Source of the DNA: Octopus vulgaris
Taxonomy: Eukaryota
NCBI GenBank assembly: GCA_951406725.2
Contig: OX597826.1
Location: 45,942,001-46,006,000 of the forward strand
Reading direction: 5' to 3'
DNA length: 64,000 nt
A program made the position numbers and the translations under genes. Positions 3,907-64,000 of this stretch are shown piece by piece. The notes under the pieces are model-generated. The model did not search any database. It was not told the origin of the DNA and saw only the letters and a program-made list of their open reading frames with translations. Every line of letters starts with the position of its first letter. Positions within the stretch are counted from its first letter, which is position 1.

Positions 3907-4324
3907 TACTCTTTTACTCTTTTACTTGTTTCAGTCATTTGACTGCGGCCATGCTGGAGCACCGCCTTTAATCGAGGAACTCGACCCCGGGACTTATTCT
4001 TTGTAAGCCCAGTACTTATTCTATCGGTCTCTTTTTGCCGAGCCGCTAAGTAACGGGGACATAAACACACCAGCATCGGTTGTCAAGCAATGCTGGGGGG
4101 ACAAACACAGACACACAAACACACACACGCATATATATATATATATACATATATACGACGGGCTTCTTTCAGTTTCCGTCTACCAAATCCACTCACAAGG
4201 CTTTGGTCAGCCCGAGGCTATAGTAGAAGACACTTGCCCAAGGTGCCACGCAGTGGGACTGAACCCGGAACCATGTGGTTGATAGACAAGCTAACCACAC
4301 AGCCACACAGCCACTCCTGCGCCT
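3907..4324 (-). mobile_element. tRNA-headed SINE, family A, full length
   Basis: Head GGCGCAGGAGTGGCTGTGTGG..GGTTCAGTCCC, central (TA)/(TG) microsatellite, tail GGCGGTGCTCCAGCATGGCCGCAGTCAAATGACTGAAAC plus (AGTAAAAG)n. More than ten related copies lie in the window. Confidence 0.9.
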
Positions 4325-5031: not shown

Positions 5032-5735
5032 AATACTGTAAAGACTGTAAGACGAGACATAAACATCCTGAAAACCAAGTGACGGTCTTTGGGCGTATCT
5101 ACAGTGAGGGAGACGTCACGCCGCCCAACATCTTTGAAGAGAGCTTTAGGCGGCTCAGTTCAAGTGGCTATATGAAGGTTTTGGATACTTTAGTCAAAAC
5201 CTGACTGGTGAGGGTTGCTACTATGTTATATCCGTGGCTGTGGGATTCGGCTCCTTGCTCCGAAAAAGGTTAGAAGTGGTTGTCGGGGAATTTCTACGAC
5301 TTCCCCAGCCCAAATTTCTGGCGTCCTAATCCCTCCGATTGTAATCCTTTGTAGTTGTTGTTGTTAAGCAACAAGACGGGTAAGGGTGAGGGTGATTAGG
5401 TGATGGTCTAGGGCTTAGGGGCGGAAGACCCCAAACCTTGGAAAAAAACAAACTTTGGTCGTCTTGTTGTAGTCGAGGGCTCTTCGTTGACGCCCGACAC
5501 CACTGGGAGGTGGCCCTCGAAGTAGCTGGAAATGGAGATCTCCAGGTTCAAATTCTTGAACGGCTAATCCTTTGTATAGGTCGCAGTTGAGAAAGACACC
5601 GACCGCTCTGTCTATAATACCAAGACCGATCTGGTGGCCAAGATCAAGGAAACAGGGACGAACGTATGCACTAGGTTCCAGAGTTGCCACGTGGCTCTGG
5701 TAGAAGCTGGGGGATGGGCGAATACTTTGAGGAAA
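5032..5735 (+). mobile_element. Decayed Tc1/mariner (maT-like) transposase remnant
   Basis: Reads KHP..VTVFG..SEGDVTPPNIFE..YMKVLDTLVK, DSAP, FWRPNPSDCNP (WPPxSPDLNP-like). After an insertion it continues VEKDTDRSVYNTKTDLVAKIKE..VCTRFQS..VEAGG. Confidence 0.7.
5354..5564 (-). mobile_element. ~210-bp short retroposon with (CAA)n tail and 12-bp TSD
   Basis: TSD TAATCCTTTGTA at 5342-5353 and 5565-5576. A second copy with the same 5' start lies at 63464-63674. Confidence 0.85.
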
Positions 5736-7329: not shown

Positions 7330-7563
7330 AAGGCAGCGAGCTGGCAGAAACGTAAGCATGCCGGACGAAATGCGTAGCCGTATTTCGTCTGCCGTTACGT
7401 TCTGAGTTCAAATTCCGCCGAGGTCGACTTTGCCTTTCATCCTTTCGGGGTCGATTAAATGAGTACCAGTTACGCACTGGGGTCGATATAATCGACTTAA
7501 TCCGTTTGTCTGTCCTTGTTGGTCCTCTCTGTGTTTAGCTCCTTGTGGGTAGTAAAGAAATAG
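7330..7563 (+). mobile_element. SINE family B copy
   Basis: GGC(A/G)GCGAGCTGGCAGAAACG..GAGTTCAAATTCC (B box)..GCCTTTCATCCTTTCGGGGTCGAT..CTTGTGGGTAGTAAAGAAATA. Other copies at ~48-245, 2225-2432, 10700-10932, 13796-14021(-), 23390-23626(-), 25680-25902(-), 32737-32970, 46446-46681, 48957-49182 and 49675-49900. Confidence 0.9.
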
Positions 7564-7919
7564 GTGGTATTGTTAAACCGGATGGAGGGATATGTAAGTA
7601 CATAATCCACGCGCGTTATGGCAGGACTTGACACATAACACAAAAAGCTATTACAAATACAGAACGGCATCCGGTCCAATGACCTTATGGTTCCGCCAAT
7701 CATCTGCCTTGGATTGGTGGTATTTTTGTTTCTTTTTTGTTTTTATCGATAAATGGCATTTTTATGAAAAGCAAAGTTGGCTTCGGCCGGATTTAAATTT
7801 ATAAAAAAGGGAATCAGAAGAAATGTCGTGAAACTTTCTCTCGCGGTTCTGCTAACTCGTTGCCAACGACACGATTTTGGTTTACCTTTTGTATTAAACA
7901 AAAGGGTTAACAAAACAAT

Positions 7920-12168: not shown

Positions 12169-12305
12169 TATTAAATATAGTATTAATTTACGTCACATGA
12201 CAAAACAGCAATAACGTACTATACTGTACTGTTAGTTCCGGTTTGTATCGATCGGTTACTTTCGTATTCATCTCCAGAAATAAATTTTAAAAAAAGCAAT
12301 ACAAA

Positions 12306-13434
12306 GCCACTTCCATTAGCACACAAATAGTGAGCGGTGTCCCGCAGGGCACTGTTTTGGGACCACTACTGTTCATAATGGCCCTCTCAGACATGCCCTC
12401 AGCCACGCAGAGAGCCACGATCACAAGTTATGCAGATGATACAAAAGTTTCACAGGCAATACAGAACCCTGAAGACACTAAGCACCTGCAATGTGAGCTG
12501 GACGAAATATACAAGTGGGCTGAAAAGAATAGCATGCAGTTCAATGCTGAAAAGTTTCAAGCTTTATACTATCAGCATGCAAAACTGAATGCAATACCCA
12601 ATGAATACACTGGACCCGGAGGGATTGCAATCCCAGAGGCACAATCAGTGCGTGACCTGGGTATTCACATGAGTGATGACGCGACCTTTCATGTACATGT
12701 TGCTAAACTGACATTGAAATGTAGACGGCTGGCTGGATGGATTCTTAGAACATTTAGAACAAGAGAACAAGAAACCATGATGGTCCTCTGGAAGACACTT
12801 GTCCTAAGCCACTTTGACTATTGCTCTCAGCTATGGTCACCATCCAGTGTCAAGTTGATCACAGAACTTGAGGCGATCCAACGAAGCTACACGAAGAAGA
12901 TAGCCTCTGTGCAGCATATGAGCTACTGGGAGAGACTCAAGAGATTAAAGCTCTATTCCCTGGAGCGTAGGCGAGAAAGATATGCCATAATATATATCTG
13001 GAAGATCCTGGAAGGTCTTGTCCCAGACTTTGGCATCGAAAGTCACACAAATGCCAGAACCGGACGCCACTGCGTAGTACCAAGGACTCCAAATTTGCCA
13101 TCAAGATGTAGGACAAGATATTGTGATAGCCTGGGCTTCAGAGGCCCACGGCTCTTCAATATCCTCCCGAAGAACCTGAGGGACCTGCATGGTGTGGATG
13201 CGGATGTCTTTAAAGTAGGACTGGATCTCTTCCTGTCAGGTGTCCCGGATGAACCAACTTCACGGCAGGAGGCGCAGATGAGGGCAGCTGCATCGAACTC
13301 TCTCATGCATCAGATGGCGTTTGCTAAAAAGCATCCGTGAGGTGAAGCCGTGTAGCAAACCAAATGGCGGTGCCCCAGCATGGCCACAGCTCTTTAGCTG
13401 AAACTGGAAAATCAAAATCAAAATCAAAATCAAA
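12306..13434 (+). mobile_element. 5'-truncated CR1/L2-group LINE with an uninterrupted RT C-terminal frame (12330-13340)
   Basis: SGVPQGTVLGPLLF, YADD, VRDLGI, LERRRER and a 336-aa open frame. Short 3'UTR ends in (AAAATC)n. Confidence 0.93.
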
Positions 13435-14919: not shown

Positions 14920-16050
14920 AAAAATGTACGTATGTTTGCATACAAAAAAGGTATGACTTACCCTGAATAGAAATGATATGAAGAATTAAATAGGTTGAAG
15001 AAAAGTATTACAAATCCAACAGTTACTTCTGGTGGTCTAAAATAATATTTGTAGATTGCTAGGCTGACTTTGTCTTGGTTCAAGATTACATTTAGGTATG
15101 GATACTAATAGTTTTGGTATTAAATAGATTTAATAAAATACGTGAAAGATCAGAAATACCTGTCTTCGCAAAACAAAATTACATCTGAGAATCTATTAAA
15201 TAATGAGGAGTTGTGAAGGCGAAGAATGGTTAGCGATTCTCTTAAACATAATTTACACATATCAATGTTGGCATTGTTTGGATGAGTTTCACTTTACTAT
15301 TGACCAAGATAAGGCCTGTGGAATATTTTAGTATTTAAGGTGGTTGATAATTTAAAATTTGGATTGGAGAAAGAATTCATGTGTGCACAATAGCGGCGCT
15401 TGAAATCAACTGTACCACCGATATATACCCTTGCTACATGGCACTTGTAGATTACATTCTTACGTAAACAAAAGGCTCCAAGAGGGCATAGTTGAGAAAC
15501 CCAACAATTGCAAGTGTACCTACCTGCTCTGTGGTTAGAGTTTACTGCTAGGGAAGTTGAACTCCGTTGGTCCATTATTAGTGAGGAAGGACCAAAAGTA
15601 CAATCTGTATCAGTATTGGATTGGGAGGTAGTATTGCAGCTAGTATATATTGTCGAGTGGGTAGAATTGTGGGAAGATGGCTTGAGTTTGGTATTACTAA
15701 GATGAGTGGGGTTACTAAGGGTTGTATTATCGCTATTCGGTGAGTTAATTTGAGGTGCAGTGTGAGGGTTTGGGTATTATGAGGACTGGTGTTGAAGTTT
15801 GCGTCTTCTTACTATCAACACTTCACATGTAAGTTCCCTTCACTGAAGACGGAGGCTCGTTTCATCTGACGATGGAATCAATCTACAAACATTATTTTGG
15901 ACCATCGTGCTCCCAGAAACAGCTGTTGGATTTGTAATACTTTTCTTCAACCCCTTAATCTTTGATATCAATCAATTTTATTCTGTATAAATAAGACCTT
16001 TTTGTATGTAAACATTTGTATATATACATTTTTTGCATTTCATTTATTTA
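14920..16050 (-). mobile_element. Penelope-like 3' fragment: GIY-YIG endonuclease flanked by inverted terminal copies
   Basis: CNC..CPLGAFCL..VIYKC..YIGGT.DFKRR..HMNSF (15530-15370), then CKLCLRE..LFNRFS..C (15260-15165). 15001-15058 is the reverse complement of ~15879-15945. Confidence 0.82.
15838..15930 (+). ncRNA. Hammerhead-like motif next to the GIY-YIG remnant
   Basis: CUGAAGA-C-GGAGGCUCG...CGUGCUCCC-A-GAAACAGCUGUU. Confidence 0.55.
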
Positions 16051-30386: not shown

Positions 30387-31632
30387 TTGTTCCGAAAATA
30401 AGGGCCGCTCTAAGTGTTACTGTTTTGAAACGCAATTTTATCATAGTATTTTAATTATATTTTTGGTGAATTTCGACATACTTAATAACTGATGTATGCT
30501 CTTTAATAATTTTCTACTTATTTCAGACAGAAAACATTCTTGAAGCATAGACGCCCTTAATTTTGAACATGACAAAAAAGGACCTTCCCTTACTTTGCTT
30601 GCATGAGTTCAAGCTTGGGTCCAATGCCTCCCAAACTGCTACCAATCTCAACAGAACATGTGATCGCACAATACGAAAGTGGTTTCAGAATGTCCGTAGT
30701 GGTGATGAGGGCCTTGAAGATGAAGGAGGTAGAGTATGTTCATGCAGTCTTGACAATGAACAACTGAAAGTAGTTGTTGAACAACACCCAGGTCAAAGTG
30801 TCAGAGAAATGTCTCAGGAACTTGGTGTGGGTATTTCAACAGTCTCATACAATCTGCAGAAGATTGATAAGGTGAAAAAGCTCGATAAATGGGTACTGCA
30901 TGAGCTCAAGGAAAATTACAAAGTTCGGCGTTTTGAAGTGGGCTCGATGCTCTTTCTGCGAAACACCAATGATACTTTTCTTGACCGAATAGTCACTTGT
31001 GACTATTTATGATAAGTGTAAATGATCAGAGCAATGGCTTGATCGTGATGAGTCCCCCAAACATTTCCCAAAGCCAAAGTTGCATCAGTAAAAGATTATG
31101 GTGACTGTCTGATGGTCTACAATTGGTGTTGTCCATTAAAGCTTTTGGATGCCAATTAGAGCATTACAGCAGAGGTTTACTGCAATCAACTCACTGAAAT
31201 ACATGCTCACTTGCAAAAAAACGAGTCTTGCATTGGTGAATCAGCGTAACCCAATTCCTCTCCACGATAATGTAACGTCATATGTTGCAAGAATGACGCT
31301 GCAGAAAATCACAGACTTGGAATGCGAGACTTTACCACATCCTCCATATTCTCCTGATTTTTCACCCAATGACTACCATTTTCAAAGCATTTAAACGAGT
31401 TTTTTAGTGGTAAAGCTTTCAGGTCCTAACGAGAAGTGGAATCAGCTTTCAAAGATTTCTTAGCATCAAAGCCAATAAGTTTTTATCAACGAGGCATAAA
31501 TAATGTCATTGATCGATAGCAAAGATACATAGATTTTCACGGTTCATACTTTGACTAATCAAAACATTTCTGTTGTTAATTTTTCCAAAATAAAATTATG
31601 TTTCTGAAATTGGTCATTATTTTCGGAACAAC

Positions 31633-35790: not shown

Positions 35791-36018
35791 TGATATACAT
35801 GTATGTAGGTGTATATGTATGTATGCATGTATGCTTCAATGTATGTATGCGTGCTTCAATATACGTATGTGTGCATGTATATAAAAAAGCCCTCACACTA
35901 TAAGTATACTGTCTTACAAAATGGAATATCTTTCTTTCTCCCTCACTATATATATGTGTGTGTTTGTATTTAAGTACATGTGTGTGTGTTTATACACAGG
36001 CATATTATGTACAATACT

Positions 36019-36080
<62 letters not shown>

Positions 36081-36162
36081 GGTGTATGCATATGTGTGTG
36101 TGTATACATCCACACACACATATATTCATATACATATATGCAAATATATATACACGCAAGAA

Positions 36163-37691
36163 AGCTCTTAGAAAAACCACTGCAAATGCTTTTCCAGAGT
36201 TCCCTTGAATGTGGTACATTTCCTCAAAAGTTAAAAGAAGGAATAATCTGCCCTGGCCACAAAGGAGGAAGCAGAGCAGATGCTACAAACTACAGACCCA
36301 TCTCTCTGACTTCACATGTCAGCAAGATCATGAAATGCATTGTCAAAAAAACACTGACCACGTTCCAAGAGGAAAATGACTTGCTTACAGACACGCAACA
36401 TGGTTTCCGTCCTGCACAGAGCTGCCTAACACAGCTACTATAGCACTTCGACTGGGTGCTAAAACAAAAGCTCAACCCTTCAAATGTGCATGTGATTGCC
36501 AAGGCGTTTGACGAAGTCAATCAGTGGATGATATGTCACAAACTGCGTGACCTCGGGATCGCTGGTAGACTGGGAGAGTGGCTGCATGATTTCCTAAGAG
36601 GCAGAAGTCAGGCTGTCACAGCAAATGGTGCTCTCTCTGAAGTAACACCAATTCTCAGTGAAGTCCCCTAGGGAACAGTGCTGGGTCCACTACTGTTTGT
36701 GGTTGCTCTTTCGGACACGCCCTCAGCCATAGAGACAGACACATTCATCAGCTATGCCGATACAAAAGTATCGCAGGCGGTCAAGGATCCTACTGGCATC
36801 CTAAGACTGCATGACTTGAATGCAATATATAAATGAGCTGATGACAATAATATGCTGTTCAATGGCGCAAAATTCCAAACACTTCGCTATCAGCCCACAA
36901 ACAAGCTACAGCTGAAGTACACAATACCAGCAGGCAATGTAATCCGAGAGTTAGGGTCGGTGCGTTATCTGAGAATCTACATAAGCAACGACGCAACGTT
37001 CCATGAGCACATTGCTCAGATGGCAACACTATGTGGGCGGGTGGCTGGTTGGATCCTTACATCGTTCAGGACCAGGAACAGAGACACAATGCTTCTGCTT
37101 TGGAGAACCTTTGTCCTCGGTCGTCTGGACTACTGCTCCCAGCTGTGTTCCCCACAGAGTGCAAAACTAATTACGGAACTAAAAGCGATCCAACGCCACT
37201 TCACATAGAAGATAGACTCAGTAAAACACATGGGTTACTGGGAGAGATTGAGGGACCTGGGACTCTACTCCCTAGAGGGGAAATGTGAAAGATATACAGT
37301 GCTATACATGTGGAAAATAATGGAGGGTCTGGCTCCAAATTTCGAAATTGAAATTTACAACCATTCCCGAACTGGACTGCAGTGCACAGTCCCATCTTTT
37401 CCATCGAGGATACGAACCCAATATTGTAGTAGCTTGGGATTCAAGGGACTACAACTTTTTAATGCCCTACCACAGAACATCAAGGATCTGCAAGATGTAG
37501 ACATGGGAGTCTTCAAAAAACGTCTAGACAGTTTTTTATCTGCAATTCCGGATGAACCCATATCACAGCAGGAGGCACAAAGAAAAGCGTCAACGCCCAA
37601 TTCACTACTTCATCAGAAGCAATACTGGAAAAATCCCCGGACGCAGAGTGGAAACGCTATCGGCGTAAACCTAAAAAAAAAAAAGGTTTAA
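36163..37691 (+). mobile_element. Decayed CR1/L2-group LINE ORF2, same lineage as 12306-13434
   Basis: NYRPISLTS, QHGFR, KAFD, VP*GTVLGPLLF, SYAD, LDYCSQL and IPDEP, with several stops and frameshifts. Confidence 0.92.
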
Positions 37692-38279: not shown

Positions 38280-39104
38280 GGATCTTTTCCTTTTGAACGG
38301 CACATGTCAACACAATTTCTAGTTAACTAAACACTTTTAAACTTCGTATACTGGTAGAATGTGTTTATAAAACATCATTTTTCTTGGCTTTATTGAGAAA
38401 ATTCTATATGTTGTAACATATTTCCACTTTAATTTCAAGCATTTCGGCAATTTTAACCAATCGCTGACCTCCATTTGGGGTGAAAACATTCCATGCTGTA
38501 TGAATATGTCCCTCGTTTAAGAAACAGATTGGCTTTATTTACATTTGCGAAGAAAAAAAGATACCCTTCCCCCACCCCTAACCCTAACCCTAACTCTAAC
38601 CCTAAATCTAAAATAGATTGAAATGCAATAGATCGATACTAGGGTTATAATTATGGGTGTCAATTTCATACGACACCGCTACGGAAAATGGGATTTTTTT
38701 CTAGCTGTGTCAAATGAAAATGTCACCCATAATTATAACCCTAGTATCGATCTATTGCATTTCAATCTATTTTAAATTTAGGGTTAGAGTTAGGGTTAGG
38801 GTTAGGGGTGGGGGAAGGGTATCTTTTTTTCTTTGCAAATGTAAATAAACCCAATCTGTTTCTTAAACGAGGGACATATTCATACAGCACGGAATGTTTT
38901 CACCCCAAATGGAGGTCAGCGATTGGTTAAAATTGCCGAAATGCTTGAAATTAAAGTGGAAATATGTTACAACATATAGAATTTTCTCAATAAAGCCAAG
39001 AAAAAATTATGTTTTATAAACACATTCTACTAGTATACGAAGTTTAAAAGTGCTTAGTTAACTAGAAATTGTGTTGACATGTGCCGTTCAAAAGGAAAAG
39101 ATCC
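38280..39104. mobile_element. 825-bp fold-back element (MULE-like) with telomeric repeats
   Basis: ~400-bp near-perfect inverted arms GGATCTTTTCC...GGAAAAGATCC. 9-bp TSD CACACAAAC at 38271-38279 and 39105-39113. (CCCTAA)n at ~38576-38611 and (TTAGGG)n at ~38777-38806. Confidence 0.92.
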
Positions 39105-62434: not shown

Positions 62435-63463
62435 GTAAGTGAGTTTACATCCCCTTTTCTACTACTGCTCATTATCCTTCTTCTCCTTCACCCCCATTGC
62501 TTGCTCCTCTCCTCTTCTTTCTCTGTTTATTCTCTCTTCATCTTTTCTCCTTCTTTCTTGCTTGCTTTTTTCCTTTCTTCTTTCTTTCTTGCTTGCTTCC
62601 TTCCTGTCTTTTCTTTTCCTTCTTTCATTGTCAAGATTTTATGGCATAAAAACTGGGGATGTCTTTTTGTAGAAGATGTGGATGCTGCCTCTTGAGTAAG
62701 TTTTCTGTGAAGTAGTAAGAATGACAAAAGTAATGCTGCAATGTCTGCTGGGTAATTTCAGATATACAGGTTCTATTTAATACCTTGTCATATGAACTAT
62801 GGTGAAGAGAGAAAATGGGTTTTTTTTCCTTTGTCCTTTTTTGTATGGTCTGGAAAAAGGGACTATCTATGGTCTTGGCATCATGTGCCAATTTAGAAGG
62901 TCTATGTGTAACAGCAGGATTTCTGATGTTAAGTCAAGTATACTGATTTGAGTTTCACCTCACTTTACTGGAGAACAAACAATCCCTCCAAGAATGGTCA
63001 GATCTATTAATCAACACTGTTAATGATTCTCTTGAATATCTGGAAGCCAGTGACTGTAGGAAAGACATTTGTAAGGAAAGGATTCTAGAGATCAGTGCAA
63101 GGTGTGTAAGTGTGGTGGGATGAACCCAGTATGGGTAACAAGAGGAGGAGAGCTGAGTGTGTCAGGAGTAACTGAGTTGGGTGGTGGTGGTATGAAATGA
63201 GACAGCTCTGAAGAACAAAGGCCTCAGTAGTGGTAGTACTAAAAAAGAGAGTATACACAGCATGTATATGGGCAAGGGGCCACAGTGTGTTGGTGATTGA
63301 TTATTACCAATCATATGAGCAATCTGTGTGTGTGTAGCAGCACTGGTCTATATTTGGGATCAAATACCCTGTATAGAATGTCTGTATGCGTAGCAGAAGC
63401 TGAGTTCCAAACCTGACATCAAGTACCAGTCTAGAATGTCTATGTGTAACAGCAGCAGCAGCA

Positions 63464-63674
63464 ACCGTTCAAGAATTTGGACCTGGAGATCTCCATTTCC
63501 AGCGACTTCGAGGGCCACCTCCCAGTGGTGTCGGGCGTCAACGAAGAGCCCTCGACTACAACAAAACGGGCAAAGTTTTTTTGTTTTTTTCCAAGGTCTG
63601 GGGTCTCCTGCCCCTAAGCCCTAGACCATCACCTAATCACCCTTACCCGACTTGTTGCTTAACAACAACAACAA
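63464..63674 (+). mobile_element. Second copy of the ~210-bp (CAA)n-tailed retroposon
   Basis: Colinear and highly similar to 5354-5564 (reverse complement). Flanked by an AGCAGCAGCAG duplication. It interrupts a segment whose empty counterpart is at ~62895-62980. Confidence 0.85.
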
Positions 63675-64000
63675 TAGCAGCAGCAGGATTTCTGATGATG
63701 AATCAAGTACATTGATTTGGGCCTCACCTCACTTTACCGGAGAGCAAACAGTTGTTTAGGAGTGGAATATTTCTGGTCCTGAGGAAGGAGGCCTGTCTTT
63801 TCCCTGATGTAGATTTTTGACCAGTGTTTTTGCTATTATCTTTGCTATGTTAAGTACATATGTCTGGCCCCGAGAGAGATCCTTAGTGATAGTGAAGCCT
63901 CATGATTTTTAGCAACCTTGAAGATTCCAGTTGCATGCTTTTCTTTTAGAGAGATGGTTGCAGAAATATTTTCTTGATTTGTCAGTTGGTTGTGTTGAAG

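Follow-up and report, generated by a model that had tools for sequence, protein, structure and literature searches.

A split-P1 ribozyme fold predicted at the head of a probably Ingi-derived retroposon in Octopus vulgaris

The window analyzed here, a stretch of 64,000 nucleotides (nt) of Octopus vulgaris contig OX597826.1, holds two copies of a short retroposon whose first 92 nt are predicted to fold as a ribozyme like that of hepatitis delta virus (HDV), with paired regions P1 to P3 and P1.1, loop L3 and joining segments J. The two copies align end to end over ~210 nt and are identical from nt 45 to nt 92, element numbering being counted from the first letter, G1. Both carry a (CAA)n tail and are flanked by target-site duplications. 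A first-pass annotation of this DNA had described two ~210-bp copies with such tails, duplications and an identical core, all of which the alignment bears out; it did not state that copy 1 lies on the minus strand. The features of the two copies are as follows.

5354..5564, minus strand: copy 1 of the retroposon; G1 is position 5564; lesions G41T (in P1) and G17A (in hairpin a)
5342..5353: target-site duplication of copy 1, 3' side; 12 bp, exact
5565..5576: target-site duplication of copy 1, 5' side, directly before G1
5473..5564, minus strand: predicted HDV-like ribozyme of copy 1 (nt 1-92), from the computed fold
5526..5561, minus strand: two predicted hairpins (nt 4-19 and 20-39) within the 5' strand of P1, copy 1
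5486, minus strand: putative catalytic C79 of copy 1, first base of CGAA, at the position equivalent to C57 of the CPEB3 ribozyme (first base of J4/2)
5460..5469, minus strand: 5' arm (nt 96-105) of a predicted end-to-end helix, copy 1; computed on genomic copy L002, with the same letters in copy 1
5369..5378, minus strand: 3' arm of that helix, within the tail derived from a long interspersed nuclear element (LINE), copy 1; likewise computed on L002, same letters in copy 1
63464..63675, plus strand: copy 2 of the retroposon; lesion G1A at the predicted cleavage site
63454..63463: target duplication of copy 2, 5' side; 10 bp, within a CAG run
63676..63685: target duplication of copy 2, 3' side, repeating 63454..63463
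63464..63466, plus strand: 5' strand of P1a (nt 1-3, GCC in the family), copy 2, pairing with nt 71-73
63467..63482, plus strand: hairpin a, copy 2
63483..63502, plus strand: hairpin b, copy 2; hairpins a and b, P1a and P1b would form a four-way junction without an unpaired linker
63503..63506, plus strand: 5' strand of P1b (nt 40-43), copy 2, pairing with nt 67-70
63508..63555, plus strand: ribozyme core, copy 2
63508..63516, plus strand: 5' strand of P2, copy 2
63517..63529, plus strand: P3, L3 and P3, copy 2
63530..63536, plus strand: 3' strand of P1, copy 2
63537, plus strand: G74 of P1.1, copy 2
63539..63541, plus strand: 3-nt link replacing P4, copy 2
63542..63545, plus strand: CGAA, copy 2, followed by G83 and a bulged A84
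63548..63555, plus strand: 3' strand of P2, copy 2
63573..63587, plus strand: internal T-rich run, copy 2
63635..63675, plus strand: last 40 nt, common to an RNase H LINE (family A) and ending in (CAA)n, copy 2

Throughout the 2.8-Gb genome the exact 44-nt core was matched 307 times, compared to 0 times for a reversed control. A sequence search for the element gave 705 candidates, the best 40 of which were scored. Since the exact core is kept in 2 of 16 copies anchored at their 3' end, we estimate the family at ~2,500 copies, with a wide error. The 3'-anchored copies diverge from the majority sequence at 3.8% of non-CpG and 12.4% of CpG sites. A search with the 3'-most 63 nt gave 16 matches, all of which extend to the 5' end, and the variable 5' truncation into a LINE ORF that had been proposed as a refutation was not seen among them. 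Of 99 matches not selected on their 5' end (four sets, three of them core-anchored, in which copies cut 3' of the core would be missed), 97 start at or adjoining nt 1: 96 align to nt 8 or lower, one internally deleted copy starts at G1, and the other two matches are 5'-truncated. The first letter is G in 113 of 121 full copies; the uniform start reported earlier therefore stands, with G rather than the purine (R) that had been read at its first position. In the 54 copies scored for target duplications, these measure 8-18 bp; G1 follows the duplication immediately in 20, lies within it in 28 and is set off from it by one or two extra letters in 6. The targets often begin with CAA or CAG, matching the (CAA)n tail. 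With its fixed ends, its target duplications and no open reading frame, the element would fit a bipartite non-autonomous LINE, or short internally deleted element (SIDE).

The head of the element is predicted to form a P1 of seven Watson-Crick pairs, in which GUCGGGC (nt 67-73) pairs with CGAC (nt 40-43) and GCC (nt 1-3), and which would thus place the cut at nt 1. P1 is interrupted after its third pair by nt 4-39, 36 nt that make up two flush hairpins and leave no base unpaired. Folding nt 1-75 of a consensus-like copy without constraints gives the resulting four-way junction as the minimum-energy structure, with pair probabilities of 0.99 for P1a and 0.65 for pair 41-69. When nt 1-39 were shuffled, the junction was obtained in 0 of 2000 cases and P1a alone in 46 of 2000. 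The first-pass annotation took P1 to be only partly formed and ~40 nt of hairpins to precede the core as a leader; neither point holds, as P1 in the predicted fold is complete but split and the hairpins lie inside it. P1 looked partial because each window copy has one lesion there (G41T; G1A).

The P2, 3-bp P3, 7-nt L3 (UCCCAGU) and CGAA that had been described were all recovered. In addition, G74 can pair with C59 as a one-pair P1.1, and pairing of C53 with G83 leaves A84 bulged, like the redrawn P2 base of antigenomic HDV (PMC2175327). P4 is absent from family A, and three bases stand in its place. All pairs of the double pseudoknot (P2, 3-bp P3 and P1.1) are possible in the majority sequence of 130 copies, and the T6C variant carried by 23 of the 130 turns a U-G pair of hairpin a into C-G. 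The fold has a P1 of 7 bp (6-7 bp being usual) starting at the predicted cleavage-site nucleotide, a C first in J4/2 and the U and G of L3, as in HDV-like ribozymes, but not their uninterrupted P1, which is broken by the 36-nt insert in family A and by a 1-nt bulge in a sister LINE, family B. A split-P1 descriptor matched 45 places in 829 kb of collected loci; every one belongs to family A or B, and the reversed control sequence gave no match. Loosened core patterns revealed no third ribozyme family, the 60 loci and 3 further ones obtained being family A, family B or chance.

The sister LINE provides the comparison. LINE B (L224:108-4774; G000:C10:3419807-3424473), located by a search with the homologous protein P0002, is a near-full-length, Ingi-like element of 4.67 kb between 12-bp duplications. 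It is broken by stops and frameshifts but encodes a 2A motif, several PHD fingers before an APE endonuclease, and pieces of reverse transcriptase (RT) and RNase H; its RNase H match (E 9.4e-5) lies under the cut-off, and the region is 43-44% identical to that of LINE A. Directly after its target duplication LINE B starts GCC-U-CAAC, with one bulged U in P1 exactly where family A has its hairpins, as it is also in the predicted fold. The pseudoknot pairs covary between the two families, contrary to the lack of pseudoknot conservation that had been named as a refutation: of 20 core pairs compared between four B heads and the A majority, 15 are the same, 4 are changed on both sides (41-69, 50-87, 51-86 and 53-83) and 1, outermost in P2, is broken. 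A and B have the same L3, and CGAA is kept in three of the four B heads, one B copy having G to A after the C. Family B has a 3-bp P4. The full-length B copy L217 carries three private lesions. Short two-ended LINE B derivatives of ~275-300 nt (L221, L222 and L223, at about 1500-1800), with altered L3/P3 and start, are probably a second, degenerate non-autonomous family.

The element's other end is that of LINE A. The best RNase H match, L137, ends in the element's last 40 nt (95%, E 2e-13), and this common 3' end recurs across LINE A loci. The RNase H of LINE A, which follows RT, matches PF00075 (E 1.5e-11). The 47 LINE A matches from the best 40 of 57 candidates start at graded internal places. 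Eight of 29 distinct LINE A loci have an inverted ribozyme head joined to a truncated 3' piece, and two more have ~9 nt of it; two further cases came from a pattern with A at nt 30 (A30). Of ten long inverted pieces, five extend to nt 1 and three end at nt 3-5; no piece runs more than 2 letters past G1. The inverted pieces meet the flank at nt 108-111 in 10 of 12 cases, just behind nt 96-105, and at 152 and 173 in the others. A at nt 30 is found in 5 of 8 unselected inverted pieces versus 0 of 78 other heads counted, and throughout the genome the A30 variant is matched exactly 12 times, in 4 cases in a piece joined to LINE A. Inverted heads occur in family B as well (L188, L194). On LINE A the element's head is seen only as inverted pieces, up to nt 173, of truncated copies, whereas family B carries it directly. 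We infer that these pieces are LINE A's own head, so that the element would consist of LINE nt 1-170 plus the last 40 nt; alternatively, RNA of the short element captured in trans may be the source of the inverted heads. The first-pass annotation suggested looking for a full-length LINE with both ends; the 3' end is common to LINE A, and the 5' core is seen in LINE B. A partner of the RTE clade was considered and rejected, as the best 30 of 150 DUF6451 loci have GAA-rich tails and no sequence in common with the element.

These data support the view that the element is an internally deleted derivative of an Ingi LINE, with a variant HDV-like ribozyme. The annotation's ingi/Vingi-related, non-autonomous family is better read as Ingi than as Vingi, given the RNase H of the partner and the 2A peptide of the sister LINE. 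Ingi elements, including a mollusc member, have 2A and no ORF1, and Vingi elements are given as lacking 2A in the available text of PMC3708506 and RNase H in that of PMC13708176. The 2A motif is present in LINEs B and C, the latter a third RNase H family with a (CAA)n tail (L138, L139, L140, L142 and L143), and in 17 of 28 long homologues; LINE B is broken and that part of LINE A is missing, so that an N-terminal 2A without a separate ORF1 is a possible feature of these LINEs. The RT motifs of P0002 and LINE B match those of I1_AC by eye (RSTEDQ..L.Q..S.GFQ, RTVL.LVDFSRA and KTEC..FTT..HEA), and the clade is proposed from the domains and this match. An ESM Atlas search gave only RT/RNase H clusters and no clade name. 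Clades known to yield two-ended derivatives are RTE, Ingi, Vingi and R2 (PMC5786205). L138 has an inverted 5' piece holding the 2A motif, and a search for the head of LINE C gave only the query locus.

In both families the segment following the ribozyme is complementary to the 3' end, over 10 bp in A and over 14 bp of other sequence in B, compared to 5-6 bp in cross controls. Pair probabilities of this end-to-end helix in A are 0.94-1.0, which suggests that A and B RNAs can pair their two ends. From the sequences, ends, duplications, shared tail and covariation seen directly, a cycle may be proposed. A copy would be read through by RNA polymerase (Pol) II; P1 would form first, as the four-way junction, followed by P3, P2 and the one-pair P1.1; and C79 would cleave 5' of G1, removing the flanking RNA and giving each new copy its start at G1. 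The head, nt 1-170, would derive from the LINE's own head. Next, nt 96-105 would pair with the 3' end, and the Ingi LINE protein, acting in trans, would prime at the (CAA)n tail on CAA/CAG-rich targets and leave a duplication of 8-18 bp. The end-to-end helix would hold the head by the enzyme, where the second target strand could prime at nt 108-111 and run off at G1. In twin priming by L1 the inverted piece is adjacent in the RNA, which differs from this scheme.

That the source RNA self-cleaves at G1 through the split-P1 fold is the reading we prefer, with a probability of roughly 0.7. Several observations weigh against it. When the window, copy 2, a consensus-like core and family B were scanned with Rfam, as suggested earlier, no ribozyme match came up at gathering or with E up to 10. 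Over all 93 nt the nested fold, from a program that cannot draw pseudoknots, has an extended P2/P3 in place of P1, which makes it a competing fold. When P2 is fully paired J1/2 is 1 nt, and a spacer of this length allowed little cleavage in drz-Agam-2-1 (PMC4908430). Imperfect P1 helices are uncommon and reduce activity in R2 (PMC3774820), and two well-folding SIDER1 signatures of trypanosomes were inactive (PMC4035085). The core is intact in only 3 of 16 3'-anchored copies, and P1 carries a lesion in each window copy. Searches by its 3' part, by the A30 variant and by the homologous protein (the last with a stricter prefilter) yielded no full-length LINE A. Covariation comes from a single two-family comparison, and one of its four double changes looks like CpG decay.

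With the same origin and fold, the ribozyme could also be dead or marginal, the 5' end being set by an internal Pol II promoter and the four-way junction protecting the RNA as a cap or giving the LINE protein a handle. Pr77 of L1Tc is both promoter and ribozyme (PMC3185411), an insertion 3 bp from the cut and the loss of P4 could cost activity, and G1 lies inside the duplicated target in 28 of 54 scored duplications, so that integration itself would favor G there. A mere cap, however, would not need C79, the U and G of L3, P1.1 and C53-G83, which are kept or covary between A and B, and the lack of an extra letter between target and G1 in 48 of 54 scored copies is expected for an uncapped end; we regard this explanation as unlikely, if still worth serious thought. 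It is quite improbable that P1 is only the 4-bp CGAC/GUCG (or a mismatched contiguous helix), with the hairpins as an independent leader and a cut near nt 37-40. The drop of the P1a pair probability to 0.63 once nt 76-85 are included would fit such an arrangement, as would the absence of an interrupted P1 in HDV-like ribozymes from the literature searched, although some 2011 papers and Repbase, which fell outside that search, may list one. The copies start at nt 1 rather than at nt 37-40, the best contiguous partner of P1 pairs at only 5 of 7 positions, and family B has the same GCC, one base from CAAC and directly after the target duplication. Least credible, and largely refuted, is an ordinary Pol III short interspersed element (SINE) with an unrecognized head, a borrowed LINE tail and an incidental fold. 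Size, copy number and the 40-nt shared tail are SINE-like, but the tRNA-like head and freedom from internal T runs of a tRNA-derived SINE are both missing: ARAGORN finds no tRNA in the 64-kb window, in agreement with the earlier statement that there is no tRNA head, and 88 of 89 copies have a mid-element run of at least 5 T, which would stop Pol III and so argues against it. The head is moreover homologous to that of a full-length LINE and joined to LINE A pieces.

Self-cleavage at G1 is one part of a larger proposal, which as a whole we would hold at even odds. In it, the four-way junction sits in P1 three pairs from the cut of an active ribozyme and grew from the bulge of the sister LINE, making P1 an unrecognized insertion site and hiding an animal Ingi ribozyme class from searches that assume a contiguous P1. 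Ingi RNA would clamp its two ends and bring the second primer to the far 5' end, yielding inverted heads on 3' fragments that are kilobases away in the RNA.

Trypanosomes already provide Ingi derivatives with a ribozyme head, and the kind itself is not new. In NARTc/RIME and L1Tc/ingi there is likewise a short non-coding derivative of the two LINE ends, with a ribozyme at +1 (PMC3185411, PMC4035085); that of L1Tc and NARTc is active and HDV-like, with a one-pair P1.1 (PMC3185411), and active relatives occur in several, not all, related trypanosomatids (PMC4035085). The element shares with the L1Tc ribozyme (L1TcRz) a 3-bp P3, a one-pair P1.1, a partner with 2A and RNase H, and UGGU before the 3' strand of P1; where L1TcRz has C-U-A-A-G, one base and GCC at J4/2-P2, the element has C-G-A-A-G, one base and GCC (PMC3185411). 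Unlike L1TcRz, the element has a P1 split by two hairpins, no P4 and a C-G P1.1, and its activity is a prediction; unlike L1Tc/ingi it has a (CAA)n tail rather than poly(A), PHD fingers in its sister LINE and an animal host. Ingi-1_AC / I1_AC of Aplysia is also an animal Ingi, with an active 2A and matching RT motifs, and the available text on it describes no ribozyme or short derivative (PMC3708506). The CPEB3 ribozyme likewise combines a 7-nt L3 and a single G-C pair as P1.1 with G-U immediately behind P1, lacks J1.1/4 and has the catalytic C first in J4/2 (bioRxiv 10.1101/2022.09.22.508989); it differs in its contiguous P1 and its P4, and the ACGU palindrome is missing from the element's L3. 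Minimal HDV-like and theta ribozymes (PMC10879173) and those of silkmoth R2 (PMC3774820) are active without P4, as absent here, but with a contiguous P1, and the extra domains of large members (R2, drz-Agam-2) sit in J1/2, not inside P1 (PMC4908430). R2 SIDEs and bipartite RTE/Vingi derivatives are also non-autonomous and made of both LINE ends, in different clades (PMC5786205; PMC3414825). No such element was found described in the literature on HDV-like ribozymes in molluscs and Ingi in octopus, a search outside which Repbase and some 2011 papers may list the family; in its available main text, an octopus repeat annotation of 2026 makes no mention of either Ingi or ribozymes (PMC13282606).

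What is distinct here is the predicted combination, in 92 nt of RNA, of a preserved HDV core with a P1 that hosts a 36-nt domain and with the loss of P4. Should this RNA prove to cleave, P1 is an insertion point for both engineering and evolution, and members have escaped searches that require P1 to be contiguous. Together with the frequent inverted heads, the covarying end-to-end helix offers a concrete model of how these LINEs handle their 5' ends, a step that is poorly understood and is also a constraint on retrotransposon-based gene insertion. Wherever the core is intact, host transcripts could, in addition, be cut by some of the few thousand copies.

Further observations on the element concern its occurrence. 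It is present in contigs of sequencing runs from organisms coded A-C, with alignments made for B and C; no LINE-type loose end was seen among the contig matches listed, and contigs cannot show 5' ends. Three copies lie at ~310-bp spacing with a common flank at L013:1501-2334 (a tandem duplication), and two lie head to tail at L016:1278-1705. Over window positions 63457-63546, run X14, guessed to be RNA, has high-depth contigs with the core changes G65A and G80A far more often than a DNA run; this excess could hint that stable transcripts hold broken ribozymes, and may come from one or two loci.

The window contains other repeats. RT fragments of another LINE family, which by their motifs we take to be CR1-like, lie at 12291-13340, 35904-36443 and 37209-37691; presumably, 30551-31012 is a fragment of a mariner-like transposase and 15297-15776 a GIY-YIG-like fragment, again by motif. 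At 38378-39005 there is a 311-bp inverted repeat, 96% complementary, with a 6-nt spacer. The window repeat families D12-D20 (e.g., 7331-7632 and 4105-4293) include at least two other abundant short interspersed families, with 7-15 window copies each. Elsewhere in the genome, LINEs of other clades (L196-L216) have open frames of ~920-1040 aa, and these are possibly recent, as many of the frames are without stops.
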